A stretch of 64,000 bases of DNA from Candidatus Parcubacteria bacterium (GCA_041158505.1 JBEBBG010000009.1:5157-69156), one strand, 5' to 3'; positions 9,007-63,999 are shown, counted from the first letter of the stretch. The notes: a model not told the origin generated them from the letters alone. Made by a program: numbers and translations.

Positions 9007-9012
9007 TTACGT

Positions 9013-10302: not shown

Positions 10303-10343
10303 GGCTTTACCCTCAAGGTGTTTGTTGGTACCATGGTCGCACT

Positions 10344-10571
10344 ATGAATTTTTTGATGAAAGCAATGTTGAAGCGCCAACTAAAAGCGCTTCCTGCAGAT
10401 CAGCAGGATATGATTATTCGGGCAATTGAGGAAAACCCAAAGCTATTTGAAACAATTGCAAAGGAGATTCAAGAAAAGGTGAAGAAAGGTGTTGATAAGC
10501 AGACGGCGGCAATGCAAGTGATGATGGCGCACCAGAATGAGCTTCGCACAGCAATGCAACCAAAAAAGTAG
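10344..10571 (+). CDS. small hypothetical protein (75 aa), helical and Lys/Gln-rich
   Basis: Plausible start MNFLMKAML within an ORF open from 10269. No known motif. Confidence 0.35.
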   Translation: MNFLMKAMLKRQLKALPADQQDMIIRAIEENPKLFETIAKEIQEKVKKGVDKQTAAMQVMMAHQNELRTAMQPKK

Positions 10572-10590
10572 CACATACATTTAGGTAGTT

Positions 10591-10630
10591 ATCAACACGC
10601 GCCGGGCACTTGTGCCCGGCGCGTGTTGAT
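10591..10630 (+). terminator. long near-perfect palindromic hairpin (ATCAACACGCGCCGGGCAC..GTGCCCGGCGCGTGTTGAT)
   Basis: A stem of about 16-19 bp read directly in the sequence between the small gene and cassette copy 2. It shares its core with the hairpin at 19487. Confidence 0.45.
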
Positions 10631-10651
10631 TTCGACGTATACTATACAGTA

Positions 10652-12064: not shown

Positions 12065-12069
12065 TTCGT

Positions 12070-41223: not shown

Positions 41224-42588
41224 ATGACAACACCACTACACAAGCTCACGGAGCACACAGGACAAGAAGTAACCATTGGCGGATGGGTTGATGTTCGTCG
41301 CGACCACGGCAAGCTCATCTTCATGGATATCCGTGATGGTAGTGGGTACGTGCAGGCAGTGGTGCTTCCTGAGCACACAGATGCACTCGCTGTTGCAACC
41401 ACGCTTCGCAGCGAAGACGTCGTACGCGTCACTGGCAAGGTAAATGCTCGTCCGGAGCGCATGGTCAAAGAGGGAATGAACGGCTCAATTGAACTTGAGG
41501 TGCTTGGTATCGAGGTGCTCAGCAAAGCGCAAGAGCTTCCGTTTGATCCAGACACCGACCTTAACCTCGACACCTTGCTCGACTACCGACCGTTGACGCT
41601 CCGCAGCCGACGCGAGCGAGCAATCTTTAAGGTGCAGGCAGAAATCGTGCGTGCGTACCGAGAGTTCCTTAACAAAGAAGGCTTCACCGAGTTCCAATCA
41701 CCAAAGCTCGTAGGTGGGGATGCAGAAGGAGGTGCAGGTGTGTTTAAGGTTGAGTACTTCAAATCACAAGATGCATACCTCGCAACCAGCCCACAGTTCT
41801 ACAAGCAGATGATGGTTGGCGTCTTTGAGCGCGTCTTTGCAATTGGTAACGTGTACCGCGCAGAGAAGCACTCAACCTCTCGTCACATCAATGAGTACAC
41901 CAGCATGGACCTCGAAATGGGCTTCATCAACGACCACACCGACATCATGGCGATGGAAACACGCCTCCTGCGACACATGATCACGCACCTCGAAGCAACG
42001 GTTGCCGAAGAATTCAAAACGCTCGGTGCCACACTTCCTGTTGCTCCAGAAACGTTCCCGTCATTTAAGCTCCGCGAAGCACAGCAGCTCATCAAAGAAA
42101 AAACAGGTGAGGACTGCACCCAGGAACCTGACCTTGAGCCACAGCACGAGCGTTGGCTTTCAACGTACGCAAAGGAAGAACTCGGCTCAGACTTCGTGTT
42201 CATCACGCACTACCCAGTGTCAAAGCGGCCTGCGTACACCTTTGAAGATGAAGCAGACCCTGGATTTACCAAGAGCTTCGACCTACTCTTCCGTGGCGTC
42301 GAAATCACCACTGGCGGACAGCGTATTCACAACCACGACCTACTCGTTGAGAAGCTCAAAGCAAAAGGGCTTGACCCAGCAAACTTCAGCTTCTATCTCC
42401 AAGCATTCAAGTACGGCATGCCACCACATGGCGGGCTTGGTATGGGTCTTGAGCGATTAACCGCAAAGATGCTCGGTCTCGACAATGTTAAAGAAGCAAC
42501 ACTTTTCCCACGAGACCTTAACCGTATCGACACCTTGCTTTCAAAGGGAAGCAGCGCGCCTGAGGAAGATACATCGGCTGCGGCCTAA
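41224..42588 (+). CDS. aspS: aspartyl-tRNA synthetase, archaeal/type-2 (class IIb; likely non-discriminating)
   Basis: N-terminal OB fold. Motif 1 region. FKVEYFKSQDAYLATSPQFYKQ (the AspRS type-2 QSPQLYKQ signature). Motif 3 MPPHGGLGMGLERL. 454 aa. Confidence 0.8.
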   Translation: MTTPLHKLTEHTGQEVTIGGWVDVRRDHGKLIFMDIRDGSGYVQAVVLPEHTDALAVATTLRSEDVVRVTGKVNARPERMVKEGMNGSIELEVLGIEVLSKAQELPFDPDTDLNLDTLLDYRPLTLRSRRERAIFKVQAEIVRAYREFLNKEGFTEFQSPKLVGGDAEGGAGVFKVEYFKSQDAYLATSPQFYKQMMVGVFERVFAIGNVYRAEKHSTSRHINEYTSMDLEMGFINDHTDIMAMETRLLRHMITHLEATVAEEFKTLGATLPVAPETFPSFKLREAQQLIKEKTGEDCTQEPDLEPQHERWLSTYAKEELGSDFVFITHYPVSKRPAYTFEDEADPGFTKSFDLLFRGVEITTGGQRIHNHDLLVEKLKAKGLDPANFSFYLQAFKYGMPPHGGLGMGLERLTAKMLGLDNVKEATLFPRDLNRIDTLLSKGSSAPEEDTSAAA

Positions 42589-44928: not shown

Positions 44929-46005
44929 ATGGAAATCCTCGATATCATCAAAGTCATTGTCCCAACCACGCTCTCGTTCTTTGTTGGTATCGCGATTACA
45001 CCAACCATCACCAACTTTCTCTACAAACATGAAATGTGGAAGAAAAAAGCAGGGAAGGTGGCAGTGACCGGTGAGGCAACACCAATCTACGACAAGCTCT
45101 ACGAGAAGCGCGACGTCGGCACGCCACGTATGGGTGGCACGGTGATTTGGCTCTCGGTGTTTATCGTTGGCGCACTCATCTGGACACTCTCTCGCTTTAC
45201 CGACACTGGCCTCTTCGACAAAATCGAGTTCGTCAGCCGTAACCAAACCTGGATTCCATTCTGGGCGCTGCTCATTGGCGCGCTCGTTGGACTGCTCGAT
45301 GACTGGCTCGAGATCAAAGGCTCACGCAACCACGTTGCAGGAGGGCTGTCGCTCAAGCTCCGGCTCTGCATCGTGGCGATGATTGGTATTTTTGTAGGAC
45401 TCTGGTTCTTTACCAAGCTCGACGTAGTGGCAATCGGCGTACCGTTTCTGGGCATGATTACGGTTGGGTGGCTGATTGTGCCGTTTTACGTGGTTATTAT
45501 GCTTGCAGTCTATGCAGGTGGAGTGATTGATGGCCTCGACGGCCTCTCTGGTGGCGTATTTGCGTCTATTTTTGCCGCGTACGGCATCTACGCCTTTTCA
45601 CTCGGACAGCTCGACCTAGCGGCATTTTGCGGCTTGCTCGTTGGTAGTATTTTGGCCTTCCTTTGGTTCAACATTCCACCAGCACGCTTCTACATGTCTG
45701 AGACCGGCTCAATGGCGCTCACCATCACCGTTTCAATTCTAGCCTTTATGACCGACAGCTTGGCAGGCGGCATGGGTATCGGCATCTTGCCAATCGTGGC
45801 AATTCTCCTCTTTGCAACGGCTGCATCGAGCTTGCTCCAAGTCCTCTCAAAGAAGCTCCGGGGAGGGAAGAAGATTTTCCTCGCGGCACCGCTCCACCAC
45901 CACTTCGAAGCAATCGGCTGGTCCCAGTACAAGATTGTCATGCGCTACTGGGTCCTCGCAGTCATCTTTGCCGCACTGGGGCTGTTGGTGGCATTTGTGG
46001 GGTAG
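44929..46005 (+). CDS. mraY: phospho-N-acetylmuramoyl-pentapeptide transferase MraY
   Basis: Ten TM helices. GTPRMGG, LLDDWLEIKG (DDxxD), VIDGLDGLSGG, and the C-terminal HHHFE motif. Confidence 0.85.
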   Translation: MEILDIIKVIVPTTLSFFVGIAITPTITNFLYKHEMWKKKAGKVAVTGEATPIYDKLYEKRDVGTPRMGGTVIWLSVFIVGALIWTLSRFTDTGLFDKIEFVSRNQTWIPFWALLIGALVGLLDDWLEIKGSRNHVAGGLSLKLRLCIVAMIGIFVGLWFFTKLDVVAIGVPFLGMITVGWLIVPFYVVIMLAVYAGGVIDGLDGLSGGVFASIFAAYGIYAFSLGQLDLAAFCGLLVGSILAFLWFNIPPARFYMSETGSMALTITVSILAFMTDSLAGGMGIGILPIVAILLFATAASSLLQVLSKKLRGGKKIFLAAPLHHHFEAIGWSQYKIVMRYWVLAVIFAALGLLVAFVG

Positions 46006-46016
46006 AAACAAAGTAA

Positions 46017-46568
46017 ATGACTCAATACAAAATAAATAGCGGCGCGCAAAATAAAAATACAATCTCTATAGCAGAGTTGAAAGAACAAATTAAACAAGAA
46101 GCTTTTCGTCATTTAAAACACATTAAAGACAGTAGGAGTCATGCAGCTTTTAATCTAGCTTTCTTAAAGGCGACTATTTACATCGAAGAAATTCTAAAAG
46201 ATGTAAATTTTCATTTTGATAAGAATTTAAAAGACAAACCTCTAGGTAATCAAATTAACGCAATTAAAAAATATATTAATCTTGAACAAGAAACGGAGGA
46301 AGATCAAAAAATATACGAATCTGCTTTTGAAAAATTAGATTTTATTAATGAGATTCGGAAAAAGATTGCACATGATTTAGAATATAACTTAATTAATGAT
46401 AAAAATGCCTTAAATTCTATGCGGATAACAATCTTAGACTCAGAAGAAGAAAAAGCCAAAAAAGTTGCCTTATACTTTAAAGGTATTATTTTTCCTTTTC
46501 TTCACTTTAAATTAGGAATTAAGAACTTTGATAATTTCTTAATTCCCCTAGAACATGAATCCAATTAA
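46017..46568 (+). CDS. hypothetical protein; first gene of an AT-rich accessory operon
   Basis: 183 aa, Lys/Asn/Ile-rich, no motif. Starts 11 nt after the mraY stop. Overlaps the next gene by 14 nt. Confidence 0.45.
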   Translation: MTQYKINSGAQNKNTISIAELKEQIKQEAFRHLKHIKDSRSHAAFNLAFLKATIYIEEILKDVNFHFDKNLKDKPLGNQINAIKKYINLEQETEEDQKIYESAFEKLDFINEIRKKIAHDLEYNLINDKNALNSMRITILDSEEEKAKKVALYFKGIIFPFLHFKLGIKNFDNFLIPLEHESN

Positions 46569-46902
46569 ACGCCTCACAAAAGAAATAATTGCGTTTCGAA
46601 ACCGACGGAAGTGGAAACAATTCCATAATCCAAAAGACGTCGCACTTTCTTTAGTACTTGAGGCGACAGAGGTTATGGAACATTTTCAATGGAAAAGTCC
46701 TGAGGAAATGAAAACATACGTTAAGAAGAATAAAACAGCAATTAGCGAAGAACTTGCTGATGTTTTGTACTGGGTACTGCTGCTATCACACGATCTCAAT
46801 ATTGATATCGAGAAAGCACTAGACAATAAAATAAAAATCAATAACGAAAAATATCCTGTATCAAAAGCAAAGGGGAGTCATGCAAAGTACACAGAACTAT
46901 AG
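46555..46902 (+). CDS. MazG-like nucleoside triphosphate pyrophosphohydrolase (all-alpha NTP-PPase)
   Basis: LVLEATEVMEHF...EELADVLYWVLLLSHDLNIDIEKALDNKIKINNEKYP matches the MazG/DCTPP1-type EExxE...EELGDxL metal-binding pattern. 115 aa. Confidence 0.65.
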   Translation: MNPIKRLTKEIIAFRNRRKWKQFHNPKDVALSLVLEATEVMEHFQWKSPEEMKTYVKKNKTAISEELADVLYWVLLLSHDLNIDIEKALDNKIKINNEKYPVSKAKGSHAKYTEL

Positions 46903-48466
46903 TATGTCTGAGATTAAAACATTTAAATTTGATAGCAAAAATTTCGATGAAATTCGGGCGTACAAATTTGGTACAAATTGGCCCGTGGTTTACCTCATTG
47001 AGGATGGAAAAGAAATCTATGTAGGAGAGACCGTAAATGCATACCAGCGGAGTAAGCAGCACTTAGAAAACGCCGCTCGTGCGCGTCTTAAACGCATTCA
47101 CATTATCGGTGACGAAGAGTACAACAAATCAGCAACTCTCGATACAGAATCGTGGCTTATTCAGTACATGTCTGCTGAAGAAAAGTTTGTACTTCAAAAT
47201 GGAAACCGGGGCCTCAAAAATCACAGCTACTTTGATCGTGAAAAATATAGAGCAAAATTCGAACGAACATGGCAAAAGTTAAAAGAGATGGCCATCGTCC
47301 AAAAAGATTTAGTGCAGATTCGCAACAGCGACATTTTTAAATATTCTCCATATAAAGCACTGACGCAAGATCAAATGCTTGTTGTGCGAAAAATTGTAAA
47401 GCACCTTATTTTACAAAAAGAGCACACGTTTATCATTAATGGAAAGCCAGGAACAGGGAAAACAATCCTTGCTGTCTATCTCATAAAATACCTAAAAGAA
47501 CGAGAGGAAACAAAGCATTTAAATGTTGCCCTTGTGGTACCCATGACCTCACTTCGAAAAACAATTCAGAAGGTTTTCCGAAAAGTTTCTGGGCTCAGTT
47601 CTAGTATGGTAATTGGTCCAAACGACGTCACCAGCAAACAGTACGATTTACTTATTGTTGATGAGGCGCACCGATTGCGCAGGCGTGTGAATATCACAAA
47701 TTTTCGTTCGTTTGATACAACTAATAAAAAACTTGGTTTTACAAATGAAGGTACTGAGCTTGATTGGGTTTTGCGCTCGGCAAAAAATCACATTTTATTT
47801 TACGACAAAAACCAGAGCGTTCGCCCCTCAGACATACCCCATGCCCGTTTCGACGCATTAGAAGCAACTCACTTTGAACTAGAGAGTCAGTTGCGAGTAG
47901 AAGGCGGGGAAGAGTATGTAACTTTCATTGATAATCTTTTTGACACAGCTGTACAAAACAAAATAGCTATCAAAAACTATGATTTTAAGTTGTATACGAA
48001 CATTGTTCAGATGGTTGAGGATATAAAGCAAAAAGATAAGGAGTTTGGTTTGTCTCGAATGGTTGCCGGTTATGCGTGGAACTGGAACACAAAACGCGGC
48101 GGAGAATATGACATTGATATCGACGGACTAAAACTTACGTGGAATAGTAGCGCAAGCGACTGGGTAAATTCACCGAATGCACTGAATGAAGTTGGTTGTA
48201 TTCACACAGTGCAAGGATACGATCTTAACTATACCGGCGTAATTATTGGACCAGAAATTTTTTACAATAAAGAAATTAGAAAGATTTGCGTAAGTCCGCA
48301 AAAATATAAGGACATCAACGGCAAGCGCTCAGTCTCTGATCCCGAAGAATTAACTCGATACGTCATCAATATTTATAAAACATTAATGACTCGGGGTATT
48401 AAAGGGACGTACGTATACATTGTGGACCGAGATTTACGAGAATATATAGAATCTCAGCTTGTCTAG
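46880..48466 (+). CDS. GIY-YIG nuclease domain fused to a DUF2075-type P-loop (SF1 helicase-like) ATPase
   Basis: GIY-YIG: VVYLIEDGKEIYVGETVNAYQRSKQHLEN. Walker A INGKPGTGKTILAVYL. Walker B/DEAH LLIVDEAHRL. C-terminal GYAWNWNTK...IHTVQGYDLNYTGVIIG, typical of DUF2075. Overlaps the upstream gene by 23 nt. Confidence 0.7.
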   Translation: MQSTQNYSMSEIKTFKFDSKNFDEIRAYKFGTNWPVVYLIEDGKEIYVGETVNAYQRSKQHLENAARARLKRIHIIGDEEYNKSATLDTESWLIQYMSAEEKFVLQNGNRGLKNHSYFDREKYRAKFERTWQKLKEMAIVQKDLVQIRNSDIFKYSPYKALTQDQMLVVRKIVKHLILQKEHTFIINGKPGTGKTILAVYLIKYLKEREETKHLNVALVVPMTSLRKTIQKVFRKVSGLSSSMVIGPNDVTSKQYDLLIVDEAHRLRRRVNITNFRSFDTTNKKLGFTNEGTELDWVLRSAKNHILFYDKNQSVRPSDIPHARFDALEATHFELESQLRVEGGEEYVTFIDNLFDTAVQNKIAIKNYDFKLYTNIVQMVEDIKQKDKEFGLSRMVAGYAWNWNTKRGGEYDIDIDGLKLTWNSSASDWVNSPNALNEVGCIHTVQGYDLNYTGVIIGPEIFYNKEIRKICVSPQKYKDINGKRSVSDPEELTRYVINIYKTLMTRGIKGTYVYIVDRDLREYIESQLV

Positions 48467-48505
48467 TACTGTTTTTAATTTTAGTTCTACAAAAATATTT
48501 ATTTA

Positions 48506-48533
48506 TTGAAATTTCACATAAATGTGGTATAGT
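48506..48533 (+). promoter_or_regulatory. putative sigma70-type promoter, TTGAAA-16-TATAGT
   Basis: Read directly, 10 nt upstream of the HicB-like ORF start. Confidence 0.3.
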
Positions 48534-48542
48534 GCTTGTACT

Positions 48543-48815
48543 ATGAATGAGCAAGATGTACGGGCCGCGTTGAAAGCCTTTTTGGGCGACAAAATTCTTA
48601 CGTTTACCGTTGAGGACCACCCGAACGGTGAATGGTCTGCAATCTGTAATGAAATTCCAGCAATTATTACAGGAGGAGATGCCCAAGATCGTAATGAAAA
48701 AGAGGCGCTTATGCGTGATGCTATTTTTACAGCAGCGGGTATCCCAAAAGCATTTTGTAATGACGCGCTCTTGCGCGATGCGTCACTCCAGGTTGCAGCG
48801 TATGCAGTTTCATAA
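48543..48815 (+). CDS. hicB: HicB-like antitoxin (UPF0150 fold)
   Basis: ...ILTFTVEDHPNGEWSAICNEIPAIITGGDAQDRNEKEALMRDAIF... matches the HicB/UPF0150 pattern (E.DGGY.A..PELPG..TQGDT.EEAL.N.REAI). Confidence 0.55.
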   Translation: MNEQDVRAALKAFLGDKILTFTVEDHPNGEWSAICNEIPAIITGGDAQDRNEKEALMRDAIFTAAGIPKAFCNDALLRDASLQVAAYAVS

Positions 48816-49143
48816 TCGCCACTCACATCAAGCAATCACACTTGAATACGGCGGTTTAGTTGATAGATTAAAAAATACTAAGCAAAAAGACTGGATTAAA
48901 GCATGCCGTTCTCTCGGCTTGGTTGTGCAGGAAGACAGAGGAAAAGGAAGCCACTGTCGAGTTGTCCGAAGTGAAGATTGCAATCCATCGGAACCAGATT
49001 GTTTAGTGATGACTATTCCCAGAACACAGCTCTCGGCAAACCAACGAGCGCACGTTAAGCAATTAGTAGCATTCGGTCTTGCATATGATCGATACACCGA
49101 AAAAGATGTCTGGGAAGCATTGGGAATTAAGATTAAGCACTAA
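48802..49143 (+). CDS. hicA: HicA-like mRNA interferase toxin (YcfA family)
   Basis: ...DWIKACRSLGLVVQEDRGKGSHCRVVRS...LVMTIPRTQLSANQRAHVKQLV... resembles HicA (..L...GF......GSH......T.P.H). Overlaps the HicB stop by 14 nt. The true start is uncertain. Confidence 0.5.
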   Translation: MQFHNRHSHQAITLEYGGLVDRLKNTKQKDWIKACRSLGLVVQEDRGKGSHCRVVRSEDCNPSEPDCLVMTIPRTQLSANQRAHVKQLVAFGLAYDRYTEKDVWEALGIKIKH

Positions 49144-49183
49144 CTACGCATGTTCAGCAGCCAAATGCTATACTTACCCCAAC

Positions 49184-50005
49184 ATGCATAAACACATCAC
49201 CCACACAGCGTTACTCCTCGCTCTATTATGTACCAGCATCAGCGCACAACCAGCACACGCCGCAACAGAGGCACCACTTCCTGAAGTTGTGGCAAATGCA
49301 ACGTTTGCCATTGTAGATGGGCGAGATTTAAGGCCGCTACCAACCAACACTGTTTTCTATAAAAACGATAGCATCAATGTGTCGCTCGATTTGGTGACAC
49401 CACACGAGAAGGTTCAGGTGGAATACTTTTTGGTAAACGCAAAGGGTAACAAGAAGGTGAAGCTCAATCCAAAACCAAAAAAGATAACACTCGAAGAAAA
49501 TTCACAGGGATGGGGTATCGGCCAAATCGTTACTCAGGAACCAGGGACGTACTACTTTTTGGTAGACATGAAAGTAGGAAAGAAAACCTACAAGCTTAAA
49601 ACGCAGCCGTTTGTGGTGAAAGCGACAACGGCAGCCGCAGCTGACGCAGCAATTCCTGAAGACCTTAGCATCGCCCTTATACCGTTGGAATTCTCGCAGA
49701 CATCCGCAGATCGTGAGTACCGCCTTAGCTTTACTGCACCAGCAAGTCGGCGAACAAACGACCTGACTGGCGCACTCCATGTGACCTGCTCACAAAAAAT
49801 TACCCTATACGAAAAGGGAGGTAGCACGACGTGTGACAAGAAAAAGCGAATGGTCTATGCATCGCTCAATAACTTAGATGCGAACTTTCTCGTCGATGCC
49901 GATGACCTGCAAAAGCCAGTAGAAATCAAAGCTGAGTTTATCCTCAAGAATGCAAAGAATAAAACAGTCGCGAAGCTCAAAGACTCACTCTACGCGGCTT
50001 TGTAG
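49184..50005 (+). CDS. hypothetical secreted protein
   Basis: Signal peptide MHKHITHTALLLALLCTSISAQPAHA. Lys-rich beta-strand-like repeats. Confidence 0.45.
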   Translation: MHKHITHTALLLALLCTSISAQPAHAATEAPLPEVVANATFAIVDGRDLRPLPTNTVFYKNDSINVSLDLVTPHEKVQVEYFLVNAKGNKKVKLNPKPKKITLEENSQGWGIGQIVTQEPGTYYFLVDMKVGKKTYKLKTQPFVVKATTAAAADAAIPEDLSIALIPLEFSQTSADREYRLSFTAPASRRTNDLTGALHVTCSQKITLYEKGGSTTCDKKKRMVYASLNNLDANFLVDADDLQKPVEIKAEFILKNAKNKTVAKLKDSLYAAL

Positions 50006-50088
50006 GCGACCCAAGCACCACGGTTCGGTAAGTCGGCATAATTGACACCACTCCCACGACCCGTACTATAGACGCAAATAGAAAGGAT

Positions 50089-50108
50089 GGGGCATAAAGC
50101 CCTTTTTG
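50089..50108 (+). terminator. short hairpin GGGGC-ATAAA-GCCC followed by TTTTTG
   Basis: Read directly downstream of 49184-50005. Confidence 0.35.
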
Positions 50109-50109
50109 A

Positions 50110-50667
50110 TTGACAGTTATGGAAAAGCTCATTGTTATGGCGTTGTTTGCGCGTGGCGGTTTTTCGGAGCAGTTGGTCACCCAATTTGGTCAGATTATTT
50201 TCTCATGGAACATCTCGCGTTCCAGAAGGAAGGAAGTGTTTCTCACCGGCGAAGTCGTCGGAGGAGACTACATGACCAATGCGCGTGATCGTGGTCCGGA
50301 GCTGCTGCCGATGGCAAAGTTTGAAGCTGACATTCCACGCGCCTGCATGCAAGGACCGGAAGCGTTCACCAAGAGCGTGACGCATCTGATGACCGCACAC
50401 CTCGCCTGTGCACGGTTTAGCGCTGGAGGAACAGTTCGGGTAGGCCCACAGCTTGGCGGAGTATCGTTTGGAGGCATTCGCCCTGTACTCGTACAAGCGA
50501 CATTTCTCGGGCAAACCATCGTCCTGATGCCGGACAAACCTGAGGAAGCCCCCGGCTCTCCCAACGAAAAACCCGCCTCCGCAGAGGCCGAGCAACCCAA
50601 CGGCGAGAGCCCAATTGACACCAACAACCCCGTTGTCCGCAATATCCTCACAGTGCCTGGCGGCTAA
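50110..50667 (+). CDS. hypothetical protein in a GC-rich segment
   Basis: 185 aa, Gly/Ala/Pro-rich. Composition differs from the flanks. No motif. Confidence 0.4.
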   Translation: MTVMEKLIVMALFARGGFSEQLVTQFGQIIFSWNISRSRRKEVFLTGEVVGGDYMTNARDRGPELLPMAKFEADIPRACMQGPEAFTKSVTHLMTAHLACARFSAGGTVRVGPQLGGVSFGGIRPVLVQATFLGQTIVLMPDKPEEAPGSPNEKPASAEAEQPNGESPIDTNNPVVRNILTVPGG

Positions 50668-50714
50668 AAGCCATTGGCGCCGCGAGGACATTTTCTTTTG
50701 ACTTTTTACTCGTT

Positions 50715-51635
50715 TTGTTGTATTGTGCTATACGAAATACAGTGCGCGGCATGGTGCCAAACACTGCAAACCTCAAACCCGTTCTCTCACCAATGAAAAT
50801 TCGTTTCACTCTCTGGGCCCTGATGGGCCTTGTCCTCCTGATTGCTCTCGTGCTGCTGAAGCGCGACCTTGCCACCGATCTGTCGGCGGGCAAACGTGCC
50901 ACAGTCGTCGCCCTCTTTGCGATGTGCACTGCGGTGTCAGCATACGGTGCGGTTCACTTTGGACTGCGCCGTGCGTACCAAAACATGCATCAGCCGTTAC
51001 CACCACAGGTAGTGATTGCGTTTCTGCTCTTCTATGCAGTGACTATCGCTGTGTTTGTGGCGGCCGTCGAAACCGGCCAGCACCAGATTCTGAAATTGCT
51101 CTTGTTGACCAACCTGAGCATGTTTGGAACGTCTGCCCTCTACTCAGGGCTTATCGTCTGGTTGCTGCGCAAGCAGCGGCTGGAAGTGCCCATGCTCACG
51201 CAACTGCGTGAGCGGTACGGCAATGTCCTCATGCTCGACAGCGAGGACATCACCAGGGCAACGTCTCGCAGCACGATGGTACACCGGAGCATTCACCCAG
51301 ACATATCGTTTCCCGCTAATTCTTTTTGGGAGAAGGAAGGGTACATCCTCAAGAACGTGCCGTGGGATACATTGGACATTCCGCGTCTAATTCTGGACTA
51401 CTGCATGTTTCTGGCCTTTACCGGCGAGACCATCCAGAAGGATGGAGCAAACAGAAACCCAGTGACGAATGCCGCAACGGAGTTCGTCACGTACAACGAC
51501 AGCACCGCCGAAGCAACCTTACACAGGCTCTGCTTCTCGACCACAAAGGATGGTTCCTGCACGATCTTCATCGTGAAGACTTGCTCTGTGGAAATCCTCG
51601 GAACGCCGGTTCGTACGTTTGTGAGCGCTCTGTGA
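50715..51635 (+). CDS. hypothetical membrane protein in a GC-rich segment (start uncertain; MKIRFTLWALMGL at 50793 is an alternative)
   Basis: About four TM helices followed by a soluble C-terminal domain. No motif. Confidence 0.45.
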   Translation: MLYCAIRNTVRGMVPNTANLKPVLSPMKIRFTLWALMGLVLLIALVLLKRDLATDLSAGKRATVVALFAMCTAVSAYGAVHFGLRRAYQNMHQPLPPQVVIAFLLFYAVTIAVFVAAVETGQHQILKLLLLTNLSMFGTSALYSGLIVWLLRKQRLEVPMLTQLRERYGNVLMLDSEDITRATSRSTMVHRSIHPDISFPANSFWEKEGYILKNVPWDTLDIPRLILDYCMFLAFTGETIQKDGANRNPVTNAATEFVTYNDSTAEATLHRLCFSTTKDGSCTIFIVKTCSVEILGTPVRTFVSAL

Positions 51636-51655
51636 ACGAACTCCGTGGCACCGAC

Positions 51656-51689
51656 AAGGTTCCACGCCCGTCCCGCCACCCAGCGGGAC
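51656..51689 (+). terminator. rho-independent terminator GTCCCGC-CACCCA-GCGGGAC + ATTTTCTTTT
   Basis: Perfect 7-bp stem followed by a T-rich tail, immediately after the 51635 stop. A similar tail GGACATTTTCTTTT recurs at 50687. Confidence 0.5.
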
Positions 51690-51711
51690 ATTTTCTTTTA
51701 TTGAATTAAAG

Positions 51712-52350
51712 CTACAGCGCACACGCACCATCTGCCCACAATCCTTGCTGTGCGGCACGAGCAGCCTCCTCGGCTCGCACAAATGCATCTTGATACTGGT
51801 AGGGCACTGCATCGTCATAGGTGTACTCGTACGCGTACCCGTGGGCGATCATCAATTCATTCAAAGAGCTACTGCTATTTTCTAAAAACACATACGCGAG
51901 CGTCCGATCATATGCGTCAGTCATGCCTTGCGATTCATCAAAAACAAGCGTGACCACGTGTCCTTCTGCACGTGCCTGCAAGTACACTGCCGCCTCCTTT
52001 CCAAAGCACTCCACGGGCTTAGTAGGGTGTACCGACTCGGGCGTATCAATGCCAATGAGCCGTACCCGCGTCTGTTCTCCTTCACGAGCCGCAATCAATG
52101 TGTCACCATCAACCACACGAAGTACGTACCACTGATCAGGCGCAAGGGGAGGAAGAGCCGCTGCGGTCGTGTCCGATGAAGCAATTTGCTCACCTGCACG
52201 TTCTTCCGCGCGCACAGCAGTATCCAACGTAGTACTAAGGAATGCTTCAAACTCAGATTCTGCACCAAGCACACTCGCAACAACACCCGCCGCAACCAAG
52301 AGTACTGCAGCGATGACGGCTTTTACTTTAGGTGATCCAGTTATACCCAT
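51712..52350 (-). CDS. secreted thermonuclease (staphylococcal nuclease/SNase-like)
   Basis: Signal/TM AVIAAVLLVAAGVVASVLG. SNase core WYVLRVVDGDTLIAAREGEQTRVRLIGIDTPE...KPVECFGKEA...YDRTLAYVF... Confidence 0.75.
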   Translation of the reverse strand: MGITGSPKVKAVIAAVLLVAAGVVASVLGAESEFEAFLSTTLDTAVRAEERAGEQIASSDTTAAALPPLAPDQWYVLRVVDGDTLIAAREGEQTRVRLIGIDTPESVHPTKPVECFGKEAAVYLQARAEGHVVTLVFDESQGMTDAYDRTLAYVFLENSSSSLNELMIAHGYAYEYTYDDAVPYQYQDAFVRAEEAARAAQQGLWADGACAL

Positions 52351-52403
52351 GCAGCCATTCTACTACGAGCGCGGCAGACATCGATGCACGGTATACTAGG
52401 GCA

Positions 52404-53510
52404 ATGAAAAAGCGCCCGATCGACATGCCGCTCCTCGTCTTTGTGAGCATTTTGGTGATTGCGGGTTTTATCATCTTTCTTTCTGCAGCGCTTGGCATTA
52501 CCGCAAGCAGCCAAACTAAGTACTCGTCAATTGTCTTTAATCAGCTCGTCCTTGGGCTCATCTGTGGTGGTGGCGCGGCACTCGCAGCTGCGTACCTGCC
52601 ATACATGCACTGGCGCAAATGGTCATTCTGGATGTTTATTGCCTCAATTATTGTCACGCTTGCCGTTTTTATACCAGGGCTTGGTATGGAAGCCGGTGGC
52701 GCAACGCGCTGGTTGCGGCTTGGCCCTATTTCATTTCAGCCATCTGAATTTCTAAAAATTGCATTCGTGCTGTACTTTGCAACATGGATTTCAATGGTAG
52801 GGAAAAAGGGAATTAAAACCTGGAAGTTTGGGTTTTTGCCGTTTGTTATTTTGGCAACAGTGCTCTCCGTCGTCATGCTTGCACAACCAGACACCGACAC
52901 ACTCGTCATTATGCTCGTTGCAGGTGCAGCAATGTACTTTGTGGCAGGCGGCCCAATCAAACACTTCCTCATTCTTGGACTCGTTGGCGTTATCGGTCTT
53001 TCGTTACTGATTCTGTCACGCCCATACCTCATGGACCGTATCATGACCTTCGTCCATCCAACCCAAGCAGACGAACAAGGATCTGGATACCAAATCAGAC
53101 AGTCACTAATTGCAATCGGCTCAGGTGGTTTTGCAGGGCGCGGCTTCGGACAGAGCCTACAGAAGTTTAACTACCTGCCAGAACCAATTGGCGACTCAAT
53201 TTACGCAGTGGCAGCAGAAGAGTTTGGCTTCCTTGGTGCATGTGGGCTGATTATCTTGTTCTTTCTCTTTGCCTGGCGTGGCCTCAAAATTGCCTCCAGG
53301 GTACCCGACACCTTTGGTGGACTAGTCGCCGTTGGCCTTGTTATACTCATTACTACCCAGTCCTTTTGGAACATTGCGGCCATGCTTGGCGTTATCCCGC
53401 TATCGGGGCTACCGCTGCTCTTTGTGAGTCATGGAGGTACCGCACTGTTCTTTACGCTCGTTGCCACGGGTATTTTGCTCAACATTTCCAGGTATCAGAA
53501 AACACCGTAA
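52404..53510 (+). CDS. ftsW: SEDS-family peptidoglycan glycosyltransferase FtsW/RodA
   Basis: Ten TM helices. ...RWLRLGPISFQPSEFLKIAFVLYFA... and ...IAIGSGGFAGRGFGQS...PEPIGDSIYAV (SEDS signature). Start taken at MKKRPIDMPL. Confidence 0.8.
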   Translation: MKKRPIDMPLLVFVSILVIAGFIIFLSAALGITASSQTKYSSIVFNQLVLGLICGGGAALAAAYLPYMHWRKWSFWMFIASIIVTLAVFIPGLGMEAGGATRWLRLGPISFQPSEFLKIAFVLYFATWISMVGKKGIKTWKFGFLPFVILATVLSVVMLAQPDTDTLVIMLVAGAAMYFVAGGPIKHFLILGLVGVIGLSLLILSRPYLMDRIMTFVHPTQADEQGSGYQIRQSLIAIGSGGFAGRGFGQSLQKFNYLPEPIGDSIYAVAAEEFGFLGACGLIILFFLFAWRGLKIASRVPDTFGGLVAVGLVILITTQSFWNIAAMLGVIPLSGLPLLFVSHGGTALFFTLVATGILLNISRYQKTP

Positions 53511-53513
53511 CGT

Positions 53514-54644
53514 ATGAAGATTATTTTTACAGGAGGAGGCACCGGCGGACACTTCTATCCGATTATTGCTATTTCGCAAGAAATTAGAAATATCGTCAAG
53601 GAACAGAAATTGCTCGAACCAAAACTCTACTTCCTTGCGCCACACCCATACAGTCCAGGACTTCTCTACGACAATGGCATTGAGTACAAGCGCGTGTATG
53701 CCGGTAAGGTACGCACCTACGCCTCACCGCTCAATTTCTTCGACAAGTTCAAGACGTTTGCCGGTATCCTCAAAGCAATGTGGACGGTCTTTTGGATTTT
53801 CCCAGACGTCATCGTTAGTAAGGGAGGGTTTGGTAGTTTTCCAGTAACGGTTGCTGCACGCATCCTTCGTATTCCACTCATCATTCATGAATCAGATAGT
53901 GCACCAGGGCGCGCAAACGCGTGGGCAGGGAAATTTGCACAAAAGATCGCCGTCTCATATGCGGATGCAGGACAGTATTTTACACATCGTGACAGAGTTG
54001 CATGGACAGGTAATCCGATTCGTGAAGAGATCAAGCACAAAGCAGTTGAGGGAGGGTACGAATTCCTCGAGCTCGAAAGTAAGCGCAAAACAATTCTCGT
54101 ACTTGGTGGTTCACTCGGTGCAAAACGAATCAATGATGCCATCCTCGATGTTCTTCCAGACCTTCTCGAAACCTACCAGATAGTACACCAAACAGGTAAG
54201 CAGCATTTTGATGAAGTGACAAAAACAGCCGCATTCCTCGTCCCCGAGCAAGAAAAGCAGGCTCGGTACAAAGCCTTCCCATATCTTAACGATGTTGCCA
54301 TGCGCGTTTCTGCAGGTATTGCAGATCTCATTATCACACGCGCAGGTTCAACGCTCTTTGAAGTTGCAAACTGGGGCGTGCCAGCAATTGTTATCCCCAT
54401 TACAGACTCAAACGGCGACCACCAGCGTAAAAATGCATTCGCGTACGCTCGCGCCGGAGCAGGTACCGTCATTGAAGAAAACAACCTCACCCCGACAGTT
54501 CTCAAACAAGAAATTACCCGTATACTAGAGGACCCTTCGGTAGTTGAGGCAATGCAGCAGGGCGCTGGAACATTCGCTAAACCAGAAGCGGCACGCACCA
54601 TTGCAGAAGCAGTTATGAGCACTATTCTACGACACGAAAAATGA
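53514..54644 (+). CDS. murG: undecaprenyldiphospho-muramoylpentapeptide beta-N-acetylglucosaminyltransferase MurG
   Basis: MKIIFTGGGTGGHFYPIIAI... and the C-terminal ...ADLIITRAGSTLFEVANWGVPAIVIP... Confidence 0.85.
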   Translation: MKIIFTGGGTGGHFYPIIAISQEIRNIVKEQKLLEPKLYFLAPHPYSPGLLYDNGIEYKRVYAGKVRTYASPLNFFDKFKTFAGILKAMWTVFWIFPDVIVSKGGFGSFPVTVAARILRIPLIIHESDSAPGRANAWAGKFAQKIAVSYADAGQYFTHRDRVAWTGNPIREEIKHKAVEGGYEFLELESKRKTILVLGGSLGAKRINDAILDVLPDLLETYQIVHQTGKQHFDEVTKTAAFLVPEQEKQARYKAFPYLNDVAMRVSAGIADLIITRAGSTLFEVANWGVPAIVIPITDSNGDHQRKNAFAYARAGAGTVIEENNLTPTVLKQEITRILEDPSVVEAMQQGAGTFAKPEAARTIAEAVMSTILRHEK

Positions 54645-59463: not shown

Positions 59464-62400
59464 ATGCTCATACTCTTTTTGTTTCTTTCTGGTTTTCCAA
59501 GTAAAGACTTCTTTGCGTTTGCGCGAGATGCATTTCGAGATCGAAACGTAATCGACAGCCTGTACTTAGCGCTTCAGGATAAGGATGTAGTTGACCGAGA
59601 TGCTCAGCTTTTACTGAACTCACCAGTACCTAAAGCATCAGCCGCAACGTTTCAAATGAACTCTGGTTACTATATCGGTAACGGAGGTGTGAAAACTATT
59701 TCCGGACTTGGATTTCGTCCTGAATTAATCTTATTAAAATCTAACAGTGCAACAATCGCCAGTGTCTTTCACACAAATATCATGCCAGATGATACCACTG
59801 CATACATGGGTAGCGCCACAGCAGACAGTACCGCAGGATTTGTGAGAATTGAGGAAGATGGGTTTGAAGTGTACTCAACAGCAAACACTGCAAACACACG
59901 GTACACATGGGTTGCATTTGCTGGATCTGACTGTAGTGCTTCAGGCACTATGTGTATTGGAAGCTACGTGGGTAACGGTGCATCCAATCAAGCAATAACC
60001 TCCGTTGGTTTCCAACCTGATTTAGTATGGACAAAACGAACTACAAACGAACGATCCGCCACATGGAGATCCTCATCCATGTCTACTAACTACGGGCAAT
60101 ACTTCTCCGCCACCACACAAGATACGACGGGTGTGCTTTTCCAAACACTCGACGCGACAGGCTTTACTGTTGGGTTAAGCAATAACACAAGTACTGGTAT
60201 CTATTACTACGTCGCATTCAAAGAGGTATCTGGGTTTATGGATGTGGGCACCTATACGGGAAATGCTACAGACAACAGAAGTATTACAGGGGTTGGCTTT
60301 AAACCCGATTGGGTTTTCTTAAAAAATGCAAATGCAGGCACACCTGTTGCTGCCTCATTCTCACAAAAAGAAATGTACGGTGATTCAACAGGTCTGTTTA
60401 CAGCAGCTCAAAATATATCCGACTCTATCCAAACATTAGAAAGTGATGGATTTCAGGTTGGTGCAAATTCCAGTTCAAACGGAACAACCAACACTGTGCA
60501 CTATGCCGCTTTTAAAGGTGTTCCTGCAGTAAGTTCATCTGGTACATTCAAAATGGCAAGCGGTTCATACACTGCAGACAGCACCATTAAAATCATTGAG
60601 GGATTGGACTTCAAACCAGACCTAGTCATTATCAAAGGAGAAACCACGCAAGCCGGAGTATTTCGAACAAGTCTGATGGGAGGAAACTCTACTGCATATT
60701 TAGACTCCGCAACAGCAAACTTTTCCGGAGGTATTACTGCAATGAACCACGACGGTTTTACCATTGGTGAACACGCTACGGTAAACACCCACGGAATTAC
60801 GTACCACTGGCAAGCCTTTGGAGGTGCATGGAATCCAGAAACTAAATCAGGTTCATCTGATTTTTATATTGGCGCATACTACGGAAACACCCTTGATAAC
60901 AGAACTGTAGCAGATCTCCCGTTTCAAGCTGACTTACTTGTTGTAAAAAGATTTGGTGCCAGCGGTGGAGTGTTTAAGACATCAGCCCACACTGGTGACA
61001 CAACAAGTTCTTTTGCAGCAACAGCTGATGTGGCTGATTACATTCAAACTATAAATGCAGATGGTTTTCAGGTTGGGAACGGAGGATCATCAATTAATGC
61101 AAATGGGCAAATATACTTTTACTTTGGCTTTAAAGAAGGGAGTGATTTTGATGTGGGTACGTACTCTGGTAATGCTTCAGACAACCGCGATATCACAAAC
61201 CCTGGATTTGACCCTGACCTCGCTTGGATAAAGAGAAGCACAGCGGTAGCCGGCGTTACTCGTCCAAGCACGCTTGCCGGGGACCTGACACAATATTTTA
61301 TTACTACTGCACAAGCTGCTGGAAGAATTAAATCTTTTGTGACGGGTGGTTTTAGATTGGGAACCCAAACAGAAGTAAATGCCAGTGGCGGAACCTACTA
61401 CTACGCAACATGGGATGTAAACAGTACTCAGTCTGCCGTAGATCCAGTAGATTACGCCATGAGAACTGGTTACTACATGGGAAATGGAACACATCAAGAA
61501 ATTACAGGACTTGGCTTTAGGCCTGAGATGGTAATTATCAAAGCCAACACCAACGCTGGACACGGAACGGTGTACAAGAACGAGTATATGCCCGAAAGTG
61601 CTGTGAATGGCCTTGGTCTAAACTCGTCGAGCGCAGTCCTCACAGAAACAGCAACGTACGATATTATTTTTCAAGCAGACGGATTCCGTGTTGTTGGTGC
61701 AAACACAAATACTGTAAACGCGGGGTACACTTGGATTGCGTTTGCTGGATCAAACTGTACCATCACGGGCGCATTCTGTACGGGTGGATACCTTGGAACA
61801 TATGGTGTCACCAACGGTGTACCTGTATTTGGTAGAAAATTAAAAACTGGTTTTCCACCAGGACTGTTAGCAATTAGTACCAAATCAGCTGGAATCGGAC
61901 CAATTTTTACAACACAAGATTTTCAGACAGATATCGGGACACACGGTGCATTTGCAGCAGATTTCGGTGCTGCATCTGCTGCTACAGAACTCATGAAAAC
62001 TAATGATTTAGGAATCGGAATACTAAATGGTAACTACTCTATTAGTGCCATAGGACACTACTTCTTTGGATTTGCTGGCAAATCGGGCACATACGACACT
62101 GCGACATACGAATGGACTCGCACCGCAGGACCAACTGCTGGAAACGCGTTGAGCGGAAATAGCATAACTGTAGATAGTGTTGATGGAGACGTTTTTGTAG
62201 GAGGAAACTTTACTGGAACTGTTGATTTAGATCCTACAAGTGGTACGGATAGTCGCACTGCCACAGCCGGTGATATTTATCTAAGTAAGTACACCGCAAG
62301 TGGGTCGTATGGATGGAGCAGAGTATTTGGTGGGTCAGGATCAGATGCTGCAAGTAGTGTGGCAGCAGACAGTAGCGGAAATATCTTTGTATCAGGAAAC

Positions 62401-63999
62401 TTTTCCAACTCTGTTGATTTTGATGACACGGGGGGAACAGATACTAAAGCATCGGTTGGGTCATCAGACGTCTTTGTAACCAAGTACAACGCAGACGGGT
62501 CGTATGGATGGACTCGCAACTTTGGCAATAGTTCTGAAACTGAAAAAGCAATTACAACGGATCCAAGCGGCAATGTCTTTATTGTAGGAAGTTTTGGAGC
62601 CACAATCGATTTTGATGGCACCGCAGGAACTGATAGCAAAGGAGTATCGGGAAATATCGATGCTTTTCTTACTAAATACAACGCAGACGGGTCGTATGGG
62701 TGGACGAGAGCAGTAGGTGGAACAGCAGCTGATTCGGCTAACAGCGTTGCAACAGACAGTAGTGGTAATGTTTTTATAACAGGCAGCTTTACAGGAACTG
62801 TTGATTTGGATGGAACCGCAGGAACTGACAGCCGAACATCAAATACATCGTCAACTGATGTATTTATAACCAAATACAACGCAGACGGTACATATGGATG
62901 GAGCAGAGTATTTGGAGGAACCACTTCAAATGATCAGGGTATCGGTATTTCAGTTGATGGTGATGGAAATGTTTACACGACAGGAGAATTTGAGGGAACA
63001 GTTGACTTTGATGATAACGGAGGAACAGATAACGTAACGCCATTTAACAGCAAAGACGTCTTTGTAACCAAGTACAATGCAGATGGGTCGTATGGGTGGA
63101 CTAAACGTATGGGAACAAACGGTAACGACCTAGCTGCAGGTATTGCAGTTGACACCGACGGCAACAGTTTCACCTTAGGACATTACGCATCAGGTAGAGC
63201 ACTCATTCAATTGAGTTCGAGCGGTATCTTTAAAACAACAAATACCATACCGGATGTGCGTTCCACAGGAGCAAATGCCTTTACTGGTCACAAAGTCGCA
63301 ATTAATGGTGCTGATGTGCATGTCGTTGGTAACTTTAAGAATACAGTAAACTTTGATGACACTGGTGGAACTGATACCCACGTAGGAACTCCTATCGATA
63401 CCGAAAACCTCTTTACCATGAAGTACTCGTTTGGCACATACAACTACACGACGACACATAATGATGTGATTGAGAGTGATTCGTATGCAGGCGATGGCAC
63501 AAGCCGAACCATTACTACAGGTTTCAGCCCAGACTTCGTTTGGGTACGAGGAAATAACGGCAGTGCGTACAGTATTTTTAATACAAAAAACTCATTTGGT
63601 AGCAACACAAGTTTCATAAACGACCTCGCAAACCTTGTTGGTGGCATTACTGGACTTGGTACAAATAGTTTCCAAGTTGCAAACAACATTAACGCCAATC
63701 AAAGTGCTATAAACTACTACTACACAGCACTCAAAGAAACAGCTACTCCTGCCACACCAAGTGGATCATTCACCATGGAAACAGGTACGTACACAGGTAA
63801 TGGCGCATACAAACGAATCGGGGGATTAAGCGGTAAACCGGATTTACTAATTATCAAAGGCGAAACTACACAGCAATCAGTATTCCGCACAAAGGTAATG
63901 CCTTCAAACTCAACTGCGTATCTGGGTTCTGCAACGGCAAACCTTGGACTTGCGATTTCATCATTGAACCATGACGGGTTCAATGTCGGTAACAGTGCT
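59464..63999 (+). CDS. giant secreted repeat protein (at least 1512 aa, 3' end beyond the window) with SBBP-like beta-propeller blades and a reiterated ~100-aa module
   Basis: The frame was read by hand and is open from the ATG at 59464 to the window end, with no in-frame stop (checked in several stretches). There are no plus-strand entries in the ORF track because no stop falls inside the window. Blades YNADGSYGWTR.FGG...SGN.F..G.F....DFD.T.GTD appear at least six times in the region 62150-63200. Modules G.Y.GNG....I.GLGF.PDL.I.K...//DGF.VG recur along the whole protein. Confidence 0.6.
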   Translation, partial: MLILFLFLSGFPSKDFFAFARDAFRDRNVIDSLYLALQDKDVVDRDAQLLLNSPVPKASAATFQMNSGYYIGNGGVKTISGLGFRPELILLKSNSATIASVFHTNIMPDDTTAYMGSATADSTAGFVRIEEDGFEVYSTANTANTRYTWVAFAGSDCSASGTMCIGSYVGNGASNQAITSVGFQPDLVWTKRTTNERSATWRSSSMSTNYGQYFSATTQDTTGVLFQTLDATGFTVGLSNNTSTGIYYYVAFKEVSGFMDVGTYTGNATDNRSITGVGFKPDWVFLKNANAGTPVAASFSQKEMYGDSTGLFTAAQNISDSIQTLESDGFQVGANSSSNGTTNTVHYAAFKGVPAVSSSGTFKMASGSYTADSTIKIIEGLDFKPDLVIIKGETTQAGVFRTSLMGGNSTAYLDSATANFSGGITAMNHDGFTIGEHATVNTHGITYHWQAFGGAWNPETKSGSSDFYIGAYYGNTLDNRTVADLPFQADLLVVKRFGASGGVFKTSAHTGDTTSSFAATADVADYIQTINADGFQVGNGGSSINANGQIYFYFGFKEGSDFDVGTYSGNASDNRDITNPGFDPDLAWIKRSTAVAGVTRPSTLAGDLTQYFITTAQAAGRIKSFVTGGFRLGTQTEVNASGGTYYYATWDVNSTQSAVDPVDYAMRTGYYMGNGTHQEITGLGFRPEMVIIKANTNAGHGTVYKNEYMPESAVNGLGLNSSSAVLTETATYDIIFQADGFRVVGANTNTVNAGYTWIAFAGSNCTITGAFCTGGYLGTYGVTNGVPVFGRKLKTGFPPGLLAISTKSAGIGPIFTTQDFQTDIGTHGAFAADFGAASAATELMKTNDLGIGILNGNYSISAIGHYFFGFAGKSGTYDTATYEWTRTAGPTAGNALSGNSITVDSVDGDVFVGGNFTGTVDLDPTSGTDSRTATAGDIYLSKYTASGSYGWSRVFGGSGSDAASSVAADSSGNIFVSGNFSNSVDFDDTGGTDTKASVGSSDVFVTKYNADGSYGWTRNFGNSSETEKAITTDPSGNVFIVGSFGATIDFDGTAGTDSKGVSGNIDAFLTKYNADGSYGWTRAVGGTAADSANSVATDSSGNVFITGSFTGTVDLDGTAGTDSRTSNTSSTDVFITKYNADGTYGWSRVFGGTTSNDQGIGISVDGDGNVYTTGEFEGTVDFDDNGGTDNVTPFNSKDVFVTKYNADGSYGWTKRMGTNGNDLAAGIAVDTDGNSFTLGHYASGRALIQLSSSGIFKTTNTIPDVRSTGANAFTGHKVAINGADVHVVGNFKNTVNFDDTGGTDTHVGTPIDTENLFTMKYSFGTYNYTTTHNDVIESDSYAGDGTSRTITTGFSPDFVWVRGNNGSAYSIFNTKNSFGSNTSFINDLANLVGGITGLGTNSFQVANNINANQSAINYYYTALKETATPATPSGSFTMETGTYTGNGAYKRIGGLSGKPDLLIIKGETTQQSVFRTKVMPSNSTAYLGSATANLGLAISSLNHDGFNVGNSA

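Follow-up and report, generated by a model that had tools for sequence, protein, structure and literature searches.

We analysed a 64,000-nucleotide stretch (hereafter the window) of a metagenome-assembled genome from Candidatus Parcubacteria (GCA_041158505.1, JBEBBG010000009.1:5157-69156; Parcubacteria/Paceibacteria), in which mraY extends to position 46005 and ftsW begins at position 52404. Our results support, with a probability of about 0.75, that the 6,398-bp interval between these two genes (46006-52403) is a lineage-specific accessory island that is flanked by core genes, is not self-mobile, and has had its cargo built up stepwise. As a kind of feature the island is ordinary, and its most interesting cargo is an uncharacterised cassette of two genes encoding a MazG-like protein and a helicase with a GIY-YIG nuclease domain. 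We found nine open reading frames (ORFs) in the interval, confirming the coordinates and gene content that an initial annotation of this DNA had given for an accessory block of ~6.4 kb between mraY and ftsW-murG (Table 1). At NCBI these genes fall under locus tags RL150_375-383 and are annotated as hypothetical. In our family scans, which covered Pfam, NCBIfam, PHROGs and PADLOC, the ORFs that we call i1, i4, i5, i6, i7 and i8 matched no family. The island offers a clean, well-bounded case in which genes were gained and exchanged step by step in a streamlined genome of the candidate phyla radiation (CPR), at an otherwise nearly invariant site.

The mraY-ftsW junction in relatives and a sister lineage

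A scan of one genome per species yielded 80 Paceibacteria loci, whose MraY proteins are 48-61% identical to that of the window and 78 of which hold both mraY and ftsW. The order trpS-aspS-scpA-scpB-dac-mraY-ftsW-murG-gltX-M23 is kept in ~75 of the 80 loci. The gap between mraY and ftsW has a median of 50 bp, is shorter than 260 bp in 67 of 78 loci and reaches at most 2,421 bp, and the island proteins had zero matches in any of these 78 loci. The short, island-free gap in the relatives indicates that the 6,398-bp interval is derived; no other insertion at this junction comes near it in size. The 11 larger gaps hold unrelated single genes (obg, Ham1, PaaX-like, NTP-transferase, GNAT, helicase or aldolase). 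An obg GTPase gene lies antisense between mraY and ftsW in three relatives (L063 7845-8816, L074 11067-12029 and L077 11062-12033, all on the minus strand), indicating that the junction occasionally takes housekeeping genes too. The synteny comparison that the initial annotation had proposed thus revealed no locus with the same gene content. Together with the occurrence of the cassette in many unrelated contexts described below, it supports the proposed presence of foreign material at a conserved junction.

In the canonical dcw (division and cell wall) cluster, mraY is followed by murD, ftsW and murG. The window retains mraY, ftsW and murG in this relative order but has no murD between mraY and ftsW, and its cluster is embedded among trpS, aspS, scpAB and gltX. 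We likewise found no murD between mraY and ftsW in any of the 78 relatives, larger gaps included, and no Mur ligase among the window ORFs of ~390-500 amino acids (aa) that were tested against Pfam. Due to the absence of murD from all relatives, its absence here is normal for the lineage and nothing was displaced by the island, so that the initial premise of a murD missing from its proper position was wrong for this clade. The arrangement mraY-ftsW-murG without murD is ancestral in Paceibacteria.

To characterise base composition, we compared each island gene with a host background of 59 genes outside the island (guanine-plus-cytosine [GC] content 0.477, standard deviation 0.027). The AT-rich left block is far outside the host range, with GC contents of 0.272 for i1 (z = -7.7), 0.362 for the MazG-like gene (z = -4.3) and 0.391 for the helicase gene (z = -3.2). 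The middle of the island is host-like (0.44-0.46). The right-hand block, from i7 to the SNase gene, has a GC content of 0.53-0.56 (z = +2.1 to +3.1) and is only marginal, being not distinguishable from mraY itself (0.533); aspS, scpB and dac just upstream have a GC content of 0.527. The codon-usage fit of every island gene is below the host mean. Run gene by gene, the profile is therefore non-uniform, as had been predicted. The patchwork first described is real for the AT-rich block (GC content 0.27-0.39), but the block called visibly GC-rich is marginal and its GC content in effect no higher than that of mraY.

The helicase gene has its closest homologue (88% identity) in a sister lineage (L084/L085) with MraY and FtsW proteins 97% and 90% identical to those of the window and nucleotide flanks 82-86% identical. 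At the same junction, this lineage carries a 4.9-kb variant in the order mraY, MazG-like gene, helicase gene, secreted protein gene, ORFs of 117 and 276 aa, SNase gene (minus strand) and ftsW. Four genes are shared with the window: those for the MazG-like protein (85% identity), the helicase (88%), the secreted protein i6 (55%) and SNase (54%), the last in the same place and orientation. The genes i1, i4 and i5 are absent from the sister variant, and the positions of i7 and i8 are occupied by the 117-aa ORF and a 276-aa membrane protein, respectively, with no detectable similarity to i7 or i8. Only 4 bp separate the mraY stop from the start of the MazG-like gene in L085, and ~549 bp forming the i1 segment lie exactly between them in the window. 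A search for i1 homologues among 5.8 billion proteins returned only i1 itself, and a weak match to DUF4145 (E = 1.4) was discarded. At both edges of the i1 segment we observed a TAGAA(A)C motif of 6-7 nt (46003-46009 and 46549-46554), which could be a target-site-like duplication or a chance occurrence.

Because a variant island is shared with the sister lineage at the same site, the core of the island predates the split of these lineages and is older than the species. The lack of i1 and the i4/i5 pair in the sister marks them as lineage-specific indels, either gained here or lost there. The island therefore arose in several steps and not by one insertion, and we revise the single inserted island of the initial annotation in this sense, given the sister variant at the same site and the exchange of i7 and i8. 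In the sequence of events that we propose, the common ancestor with the sister lineage would first have gained the AT-rich two-gene cassette, the secreted protein and the exported SNase. The i1 segment between mraY and the cassette and the HicB/HicA-like pair i4/i5 would form a second step, each being gained here or lost in the sister, and the two genes adjoining the SNase gene would then have been exchanged for unrelated ones. Turnover would most likely have occurred by illegitimate insertion and by homologous recombination via the conserved mraY and ftsW flanks.

One alternative that we considered is a mobile element (for instance a prophage, an integrative mobilisable element or a satellite) that had integrated with the mraY-ftsW spacer as its target; the interval would then be what is left of this element after decay and loss of the integrase. 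Such an origin would fit the atypical composition and accessory content of the interval, its one opposite-strand gene at the far end, the TAGAA(A)C motifs flanking the i1 segment and the PHROGs matches for a pyrophosphatase, a nuclease and a helicase. However, we detected no integrase, transposase or recombinase and no structural, replication or packaging genes in the Pfam, NCBIfam and PHROGs scans. Attachment-site (att)-like direct or inverted repeats at the island ends were only short and at chance level, and there is no transfer RNA (tRNA) gene at the island, the nearest being at 737-812. In addition, the cassette has no relative in our viral-contig scan and only four weak matches in GenBank phage records, and the sister variant differs gene by gene and not as one element. 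We therefore regard a mobile-element remnant as improbable. Still less credible is that a wider clade had the island ancestrally and lost it repeatedly, or that the island is an assembly or binning chimera: the related island in the sister lineage and the host-like GC content of the right-hand block agree with ancestry, but mraY adjoins ftsW in 78 relatives of many Paceibacteria families, which would demand many independent precise deletions, and the assembly of the island without a mismatch in three independent metagenomes, on contigs spanning the junctions, together with the variant from two more metagenomes, argues against an assembly artefact or chimera.

Three observations weigh against a foreign, stepwise-built island. 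The composition of the right-hand block resembles that of mraY, so that synteny is the sole argument for a foreign origin of this block. We found no empty-site genome of the same species. Finally, neither a mobility gene, a tRNA gene, a repeat nor an Rfam element marks the island ends.

Core defence hotspots flanked by core genes are described in Pseudomonas aeruginosa (PMC10250203), and genomic islands have been documented in Patescibacteria (PMC12455944). Like core-flanked hotspots and small genomic islands, the mraY-ftsW interval contains cargo that varies between close lineages and lies between two core genes, has atypical composition, includes genes of defence type and toxin-antitoxin type, and lacks mobility genes. 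It differs from them in its site, within a run of cell-division and cell-wall genes (mraY|ftsW) that are normally co-transcribed, and in that only about two of its six modules look defence-related. The defence- or toxin-type content first ascribed to the island accordingly applies to these two modules but not to the secreted protein, i7, i8 or the exported SNase, which have no defence signature. Hotspot status here is based on only two cargo-bearing lineages known so far and on the small unrelated insertions in 11 of 78 relatives.

A cassette of MazG-like and GIY-YIG/DUF2075 genes

The first cassette gene encodes a MazG-like protein that matches PF12643 with 70 bits against a cut-off of 27. 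Its best solved relative is dCTP pyrophosphatase 1 (DCTPP1; 6sqw/2a3q), which it matches over its full length (residues 4-115; E = 5e-20), and ExxE and EExxD metal-binding motifs are visible in its sequence. The second gene encodes a P-loop helicase of the SLFN-g3/DUF2075 type, which would be 520 aa long if translated from the start at 46904 in the JGI gene call. The GIY-YIG domain of this protein was detected at E = 1.5e-4, 0.2 bits under the Pfam cut-off. Across 31 homologues, neither the GIY-YIG residues nor the Walker A sequence GTGKT nor the DExH motif varies. The helicase part is matched partially by the PADLOC profiles for Nhi (E = 4e-17; profile positions 113-373 of 470) and AbiO (E = 7e-15; positions 107-371 of 468), and the protein gave no full-length match to either curated model. 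A profile search found no solved structure for the DUF2075 family at E < 1e-3.

The helicase protein has at least 7,959 homologues at E <= 1e-10, hundreds of them 60-68% identical over 98% of the length. An additional Peptidase_S24 domain of the LexA/UmuD type is present at the C-terminus in about half of these proteins (e.g., P0003 and P0028, residues 547-665; loci L092-L171), and the window encodes the short form without it. Of 78 independent cassette loci that extend far enough upstream, 74 have a MazG-like gene directly before the helicase gene and on the same strand as it. The immediate neighbours of the cassette are heterogeneous and reveal no third partner: we observed Fic (5 loci), RhuM (4), C5-methylase (3), zeta toxin (2), ResIII (2), DUF3427 (1) and EVE (1). 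In 35 of 69 loci, the GC content of the cassette lies more than 3 points under that of its flanks, compared with a single locus in which it is higher.

The range of the cassette extends from CPR bacteria to Bacillus plasmids. On the Bacillus thuringiensis plasmid pIS56-233, a 34%-identical helicase homologue again has a MazG-like gene upstream (L172 40-423 and 889-1638). This copy adjoins a zeta toxin, an HNH endonuclease and a second NTP (nucleoside triphosphate) pyrophosphohydrolase, surroundings that look like a conflict-gene cluster. A distant homologue on the Paenibacillus amylolyticus plasmid pY5S7-1 (L173 2555-3835) is preceded by an MrcB_N protein, with a McrB-like N-terminal domain, in place of the MazG-like gene, indicating that the upstream partner differs in some lineages. 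We also considered a phage origin of the cassette, which is unsupported by the viral-contig scan and the weak GenBank matches reported above. Taken together, these findings suggest that this conserved two-gene module is autonomous and spreads horizontally. The pair is absent as a system from the PADLOC library (v2.0.0), and we found no paper in the searchable literature that treats DUF2075 together with MazG.

Judging from its domain content, the conservation of its active sites and its neighbourhoods, the cassette is most likely a candidate phage-defence system. In such a system, the ATP-driven helicase with its GIY-YIG nuclease would attack foreign DNA, and the dCTPase-like pyrophosphatase would remove deoxynucleoside triphosphates (dNTPs), possibly modified ones. 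Anti-phage activity has been shown experimentally for Nhi of Staphylococcus epidermidis (SERP2475) and for Nhi-like proteins combining a nuclease with DUF2075 (bioRxiv 10.1101/776245; 10.1101/2022.05.11.491447), and DUF2075 NTPases have been noted beside modification-dependent restriction enzymes. A MazG-like domain also occurs as a rare, proposed NTP-targeting effector variant of the dNTP-depleting PUA-Cal-HAD defence system (bioRxiv 10.64898/2026.01.15.699771).

The protein from the window shares with Nhi and Nhi-like proteins an N-terminal nuclease fused to a DUF2075 (SLFN-g3) helicase of SF1 type, with P-loop and DExH motif intact. Its nuclease is of the GIY-YIG type, whereas that of Nhi is PD-(D/E)XK. 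Furthermore, Nhi acts alone, whereas the helicase family described here nearly always has its MazG-like partner and often a C-terminal S24 peptidase. The MazG-like protein matches DCTPP1 (RS21-C6) in full length, but it is prokaryotic, 115 aa long and encoded in one operon with a nuclease-helicase. In contrast to the PUA-Cal-HAD system, no PUA or HAD partner is present.

The cassette could instead be a housekeeping module for DNA repair and nucleotide-pool sanitation, in which the pyrophosphatase would clear away non-canonical dNTPs and the nuclease-helicase would handle DNA that is damaged or stalled, with the long forms controlled by LexA-like autocleavage. House-cleaning is the classical role of DCTPP1 and MazG enzymes. 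Three points speak for this alternative and against a role in defence: neither cassette gene is listed as a PADLOC system, and the Nhi and AbiO matches are partial; an identity of 60-68% among proteins from many hosts, seen in hundreds of matches that cover 98% of the length, is unusually conservative for a defence gene; and the Peptidase_S24 domain at the end of about half of the homologues could be a sign of DNA-damage biology and not of immunity. Against sanitation, the cassette is patchily spread, being absent at the locus in 78 relatives with no other copy seen in their 20-kb windows, and its context differs each time (Fic, RhuM, zeta toxin, Dcm, ResIII, DUF3427 or EVE). It is also systematically GC-poorer than its flanks, and its nuclease plus DUF2075 architecture is that of proven defence proteins. 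On balance, we consider a sanitation module the main rival to a role in defence, but an unlikely one.

Within the defence interpretation, we tentatively propose a more specific role, one that we hold somewhat less probable than its opposite: the pair would be a widespread, undescribed two-component anti-phage system that couples DNA attack with hydrolysis of dCTP or modified dCTP-type nucleotides, possibly directed against phages with modified cytosines. The modified-cytosine idea derives from the relatedness to DCTPP1, from neighbouring C5-methylase (three loci), DUF3427 (one) and EVE (one) genes, and from the MrcB_N protein that takes the place of the MazG-like protein in Paenibacillus. In the half of the family that has it, the C-terminal LexA-like S24 domain may work as a switch that senses damage, with regulation based on autocleavage. 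Should the cassette prove to be an immune system, the Nhi/Schlafen-like theme of joined nuclease and helicase would gain a partner that hydrolyses nucleotides, and CPR bacteria, about whose phage defences little is known, would have a defence candidate that can be tested. Of practical value is that a tightly conserved and very widespread pair is missing from PADLOC v2.0.0 and from the searchable literature.

Remaining cargo and consequences for ftsW-murG

The small genes i4 and i5 had initially been annotated as a HicBA pair. By sequence, the best Pfam match of i5 is HicA_toxin (PF07927) with 13.1 bits against a cut-off of 27 (E = 0.11), so that a HicA domain is not called, and searches of both proteins against the PDB gave nothing meaningful; pentapeptide-repeat matches of i4 in the PDB were rejected as compositional noise. 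A second contig (L091) carries homologues of both proteins at 55% and 64% identity, the latter being the only homologue of i5. Minus-strand ORFs at 48503-48835 and 48828-49097 were ruled out as genes, given the conservation of the plus-strand pair on this second contig. The i4 family comprises 48 representatives, and DUF1902 matches 2 of 43 family members.

An AlphaFold2 model of i4, built from a 43-sequence alignment, reached a predicted local distance difference test (pLDDT) score of 85.5. Foldseek comparison of this model with the PDB placed HicB chains at ranks 1, 4, 9, 10 and 15 (probabilities 0.47-0.94, with 0.75-0.94 for the first four of these; all E >= 0.14). The top-ranked match was the HicB N-terminal domain (HicB-N) of Burkholderia pseudomallei (probability 0.85), and Escherichia coli HicB3 and HicB matched with probabilities of 0.94 and 0.82 and root-mean-square deviations of 1.4-1.6 Å over 44 columns. 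The i4 model contains no ribbon-helix-helix (RHH) or helix-turn-helix (HTH) domain; past the core there are only a short helix (74-78) and a low-confidence tail. The i5 protein has a KGSH motif and an alpha-beta-beta-beta-alpha secondary-structure prediction. Its AlphaFold2 model is weak (pLDDT 68), and the rank-2 Foldseek match of this weak model is HicA3 (4p78_C; E = 1.2, TM score 0.47).

We tentatively interpret i4/i5 as a divergent HicB/HicA-like pair, with support at the level of predicted fold for HicB only. As in type II HicAB systems, two small overlapping genes are kept as a pair, the first encoding a protein whose model resembles the HicB N-terminal fold and the second a protein with the KGSH motif and the predicted alpha-beta-beta-beta-alpha order. 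Unlike in HicAB, the antitoxin-like gene comes first, the HicB-like protein is without an RHH or HTH domain, and the putative toxin is nearly an orphan. The initial assignment thus stands as to a conserved overlapping pair, whose first protein may have a HicB-like fold, but significant sequence support for it is lacking. The pair might act as an addiction or abortive module of the toxin-antitoxin type.

The secreted thermonuclease on the opposite strand was borne out as an SNase (PF00565, 85 bits against a cut-off of 21) in a membrane-anchored or exported form, with an N-terminal hydrophobic anchor segment at residues 3-21. The NucI model NF047694 matched at E = 7e-31 but below its cut-off, and neither the NucI nor the EcnA equivalog cut-off was reached. 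SNase and i6 are only 54-55% identical to their sister orthologues, compared with 97% for MraY, which points to fast evolution of both proteins, as is typical of exported proteins. By analogy with established CPR biology, the exported SNase and the secreted and membrane proteins of the island would more likely have a part in scavenging DNA outside the cell or in functions of the cell surface, in keeping with a salvage-dependent way of life.

The island also bears on expression of the downstream genes. In the relatives, ftsW follows mraY by tens of base pairs, which suggests that the two are co-transcribed there. Between the convergent i8 and SNase genes we found a GC-rich hairpin that is likely a bidirectional terminator. 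With this predicted terminator and an antisense SNase gene between mraY and ftsW, ftsW-murG would have to use a promoter of its own in the 53-bp spacer that separates SNase from ftsW. The spacer sequence is conserved in L085, including a TATACT hexamer 7 nt before the ftsW ATG (hexamer to start codon: window 52392-52403, L085 6304-6315), which could serve as the -10 box if ftsW-murG is transcribed without a leader; a consensus scan called no promoter in the spacer. The island would thus cut ftsW-murG off from mraY and leave these division genes in need of their own promoter.

Gene map and other features of the window

The features of the island and its flanks are collected in Table 1.

Table 1. 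Features of the mraY-ftsW interval and flanking genes (positions in the window)
Feature	Coordinates	Strand	Description
mraY	44929-46005	+	Left flank; Glycos_transf_4 PF00953, E = 2e-19
i1	46017-46568	+	183 aa; ORFan; GC content 0.27, most AT-rich gene; starts 11 bp after mraY
MazG-like gene	46555-46902	+	115 aa; PF12643, E = 2e-19; cassette gene 1
GIY-YIG + SLFN-g3/DUF2075 P-loop helicase gene, short form	46880-48466	+	528 aa; PF09848, E = 7e-67; cassette gene 2
i4	48543-48815	+	90 aa; HicB N-terminal-like fold (model); gene 1 of overlapping pair
i5	48802-49143	+	113 aa; possible divergent HicA-like toxin; 14-nt overlap with i4
i6	49184-50005	+	273 aa; N-terminal Sec-type signal peptide, cleavage motif AHA/A (cleaved before the last A), read from sequence
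i7	50119-50667	+	182 aa; GC content 0.56; no family
i8	50751-51635	+	294 aa; 3 predicted transmembrane segments (hydropathy); no family
GC-rich hairpin with T-runs between convergent i8 and SNase genes	51670-51689		Terminator scan: 7-bp stem, 6 GC pairs, then ATTTTCTTTT
SNase gene	51712-52350	-	Membrane-anchored or exported; PF00565, E = 5e-24
Divergent spacer SNase/ftsW	52351-52403		53 bp; TATACT at 52392-52397
ftsW	52404-53510	+	Right flank; TIGR02614, E = 2e-94; synteny kept in 78 loci
murG	53514-54644	+	Follows ftsW

SNase is the only minus-strand ORF backed as a real gene within the examined 40-58 kb. Over 82-59435, all gene-like ORFs of at least 150 aa other than SNase are on the plus strand, and three longer minus-strand ORFs there overlap plus-strand ORFs; after ~60.5 kb (60501-63983), ORFs are on the minus strand. 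Upstream of scpA lies aspS (41224-42588), encoding an aspartyl-tRNA synthetase (AspRS). The relatives (L004-L083) split into two classes with ~31-38% and ~52-68% identity to the window AspRS, a pattern suggesting that some members of the clade have had the gene replaced in situ by one for another type of AspRS. Nearer the start of the window (7630-13329) is a tandem run of four ORFs, each 429-484 aa long, whose GC content at third codon positions is unusually low (0.32-0.38). Two of the four contain PKD domains, and together they probably form a paralogous surface-protein array.

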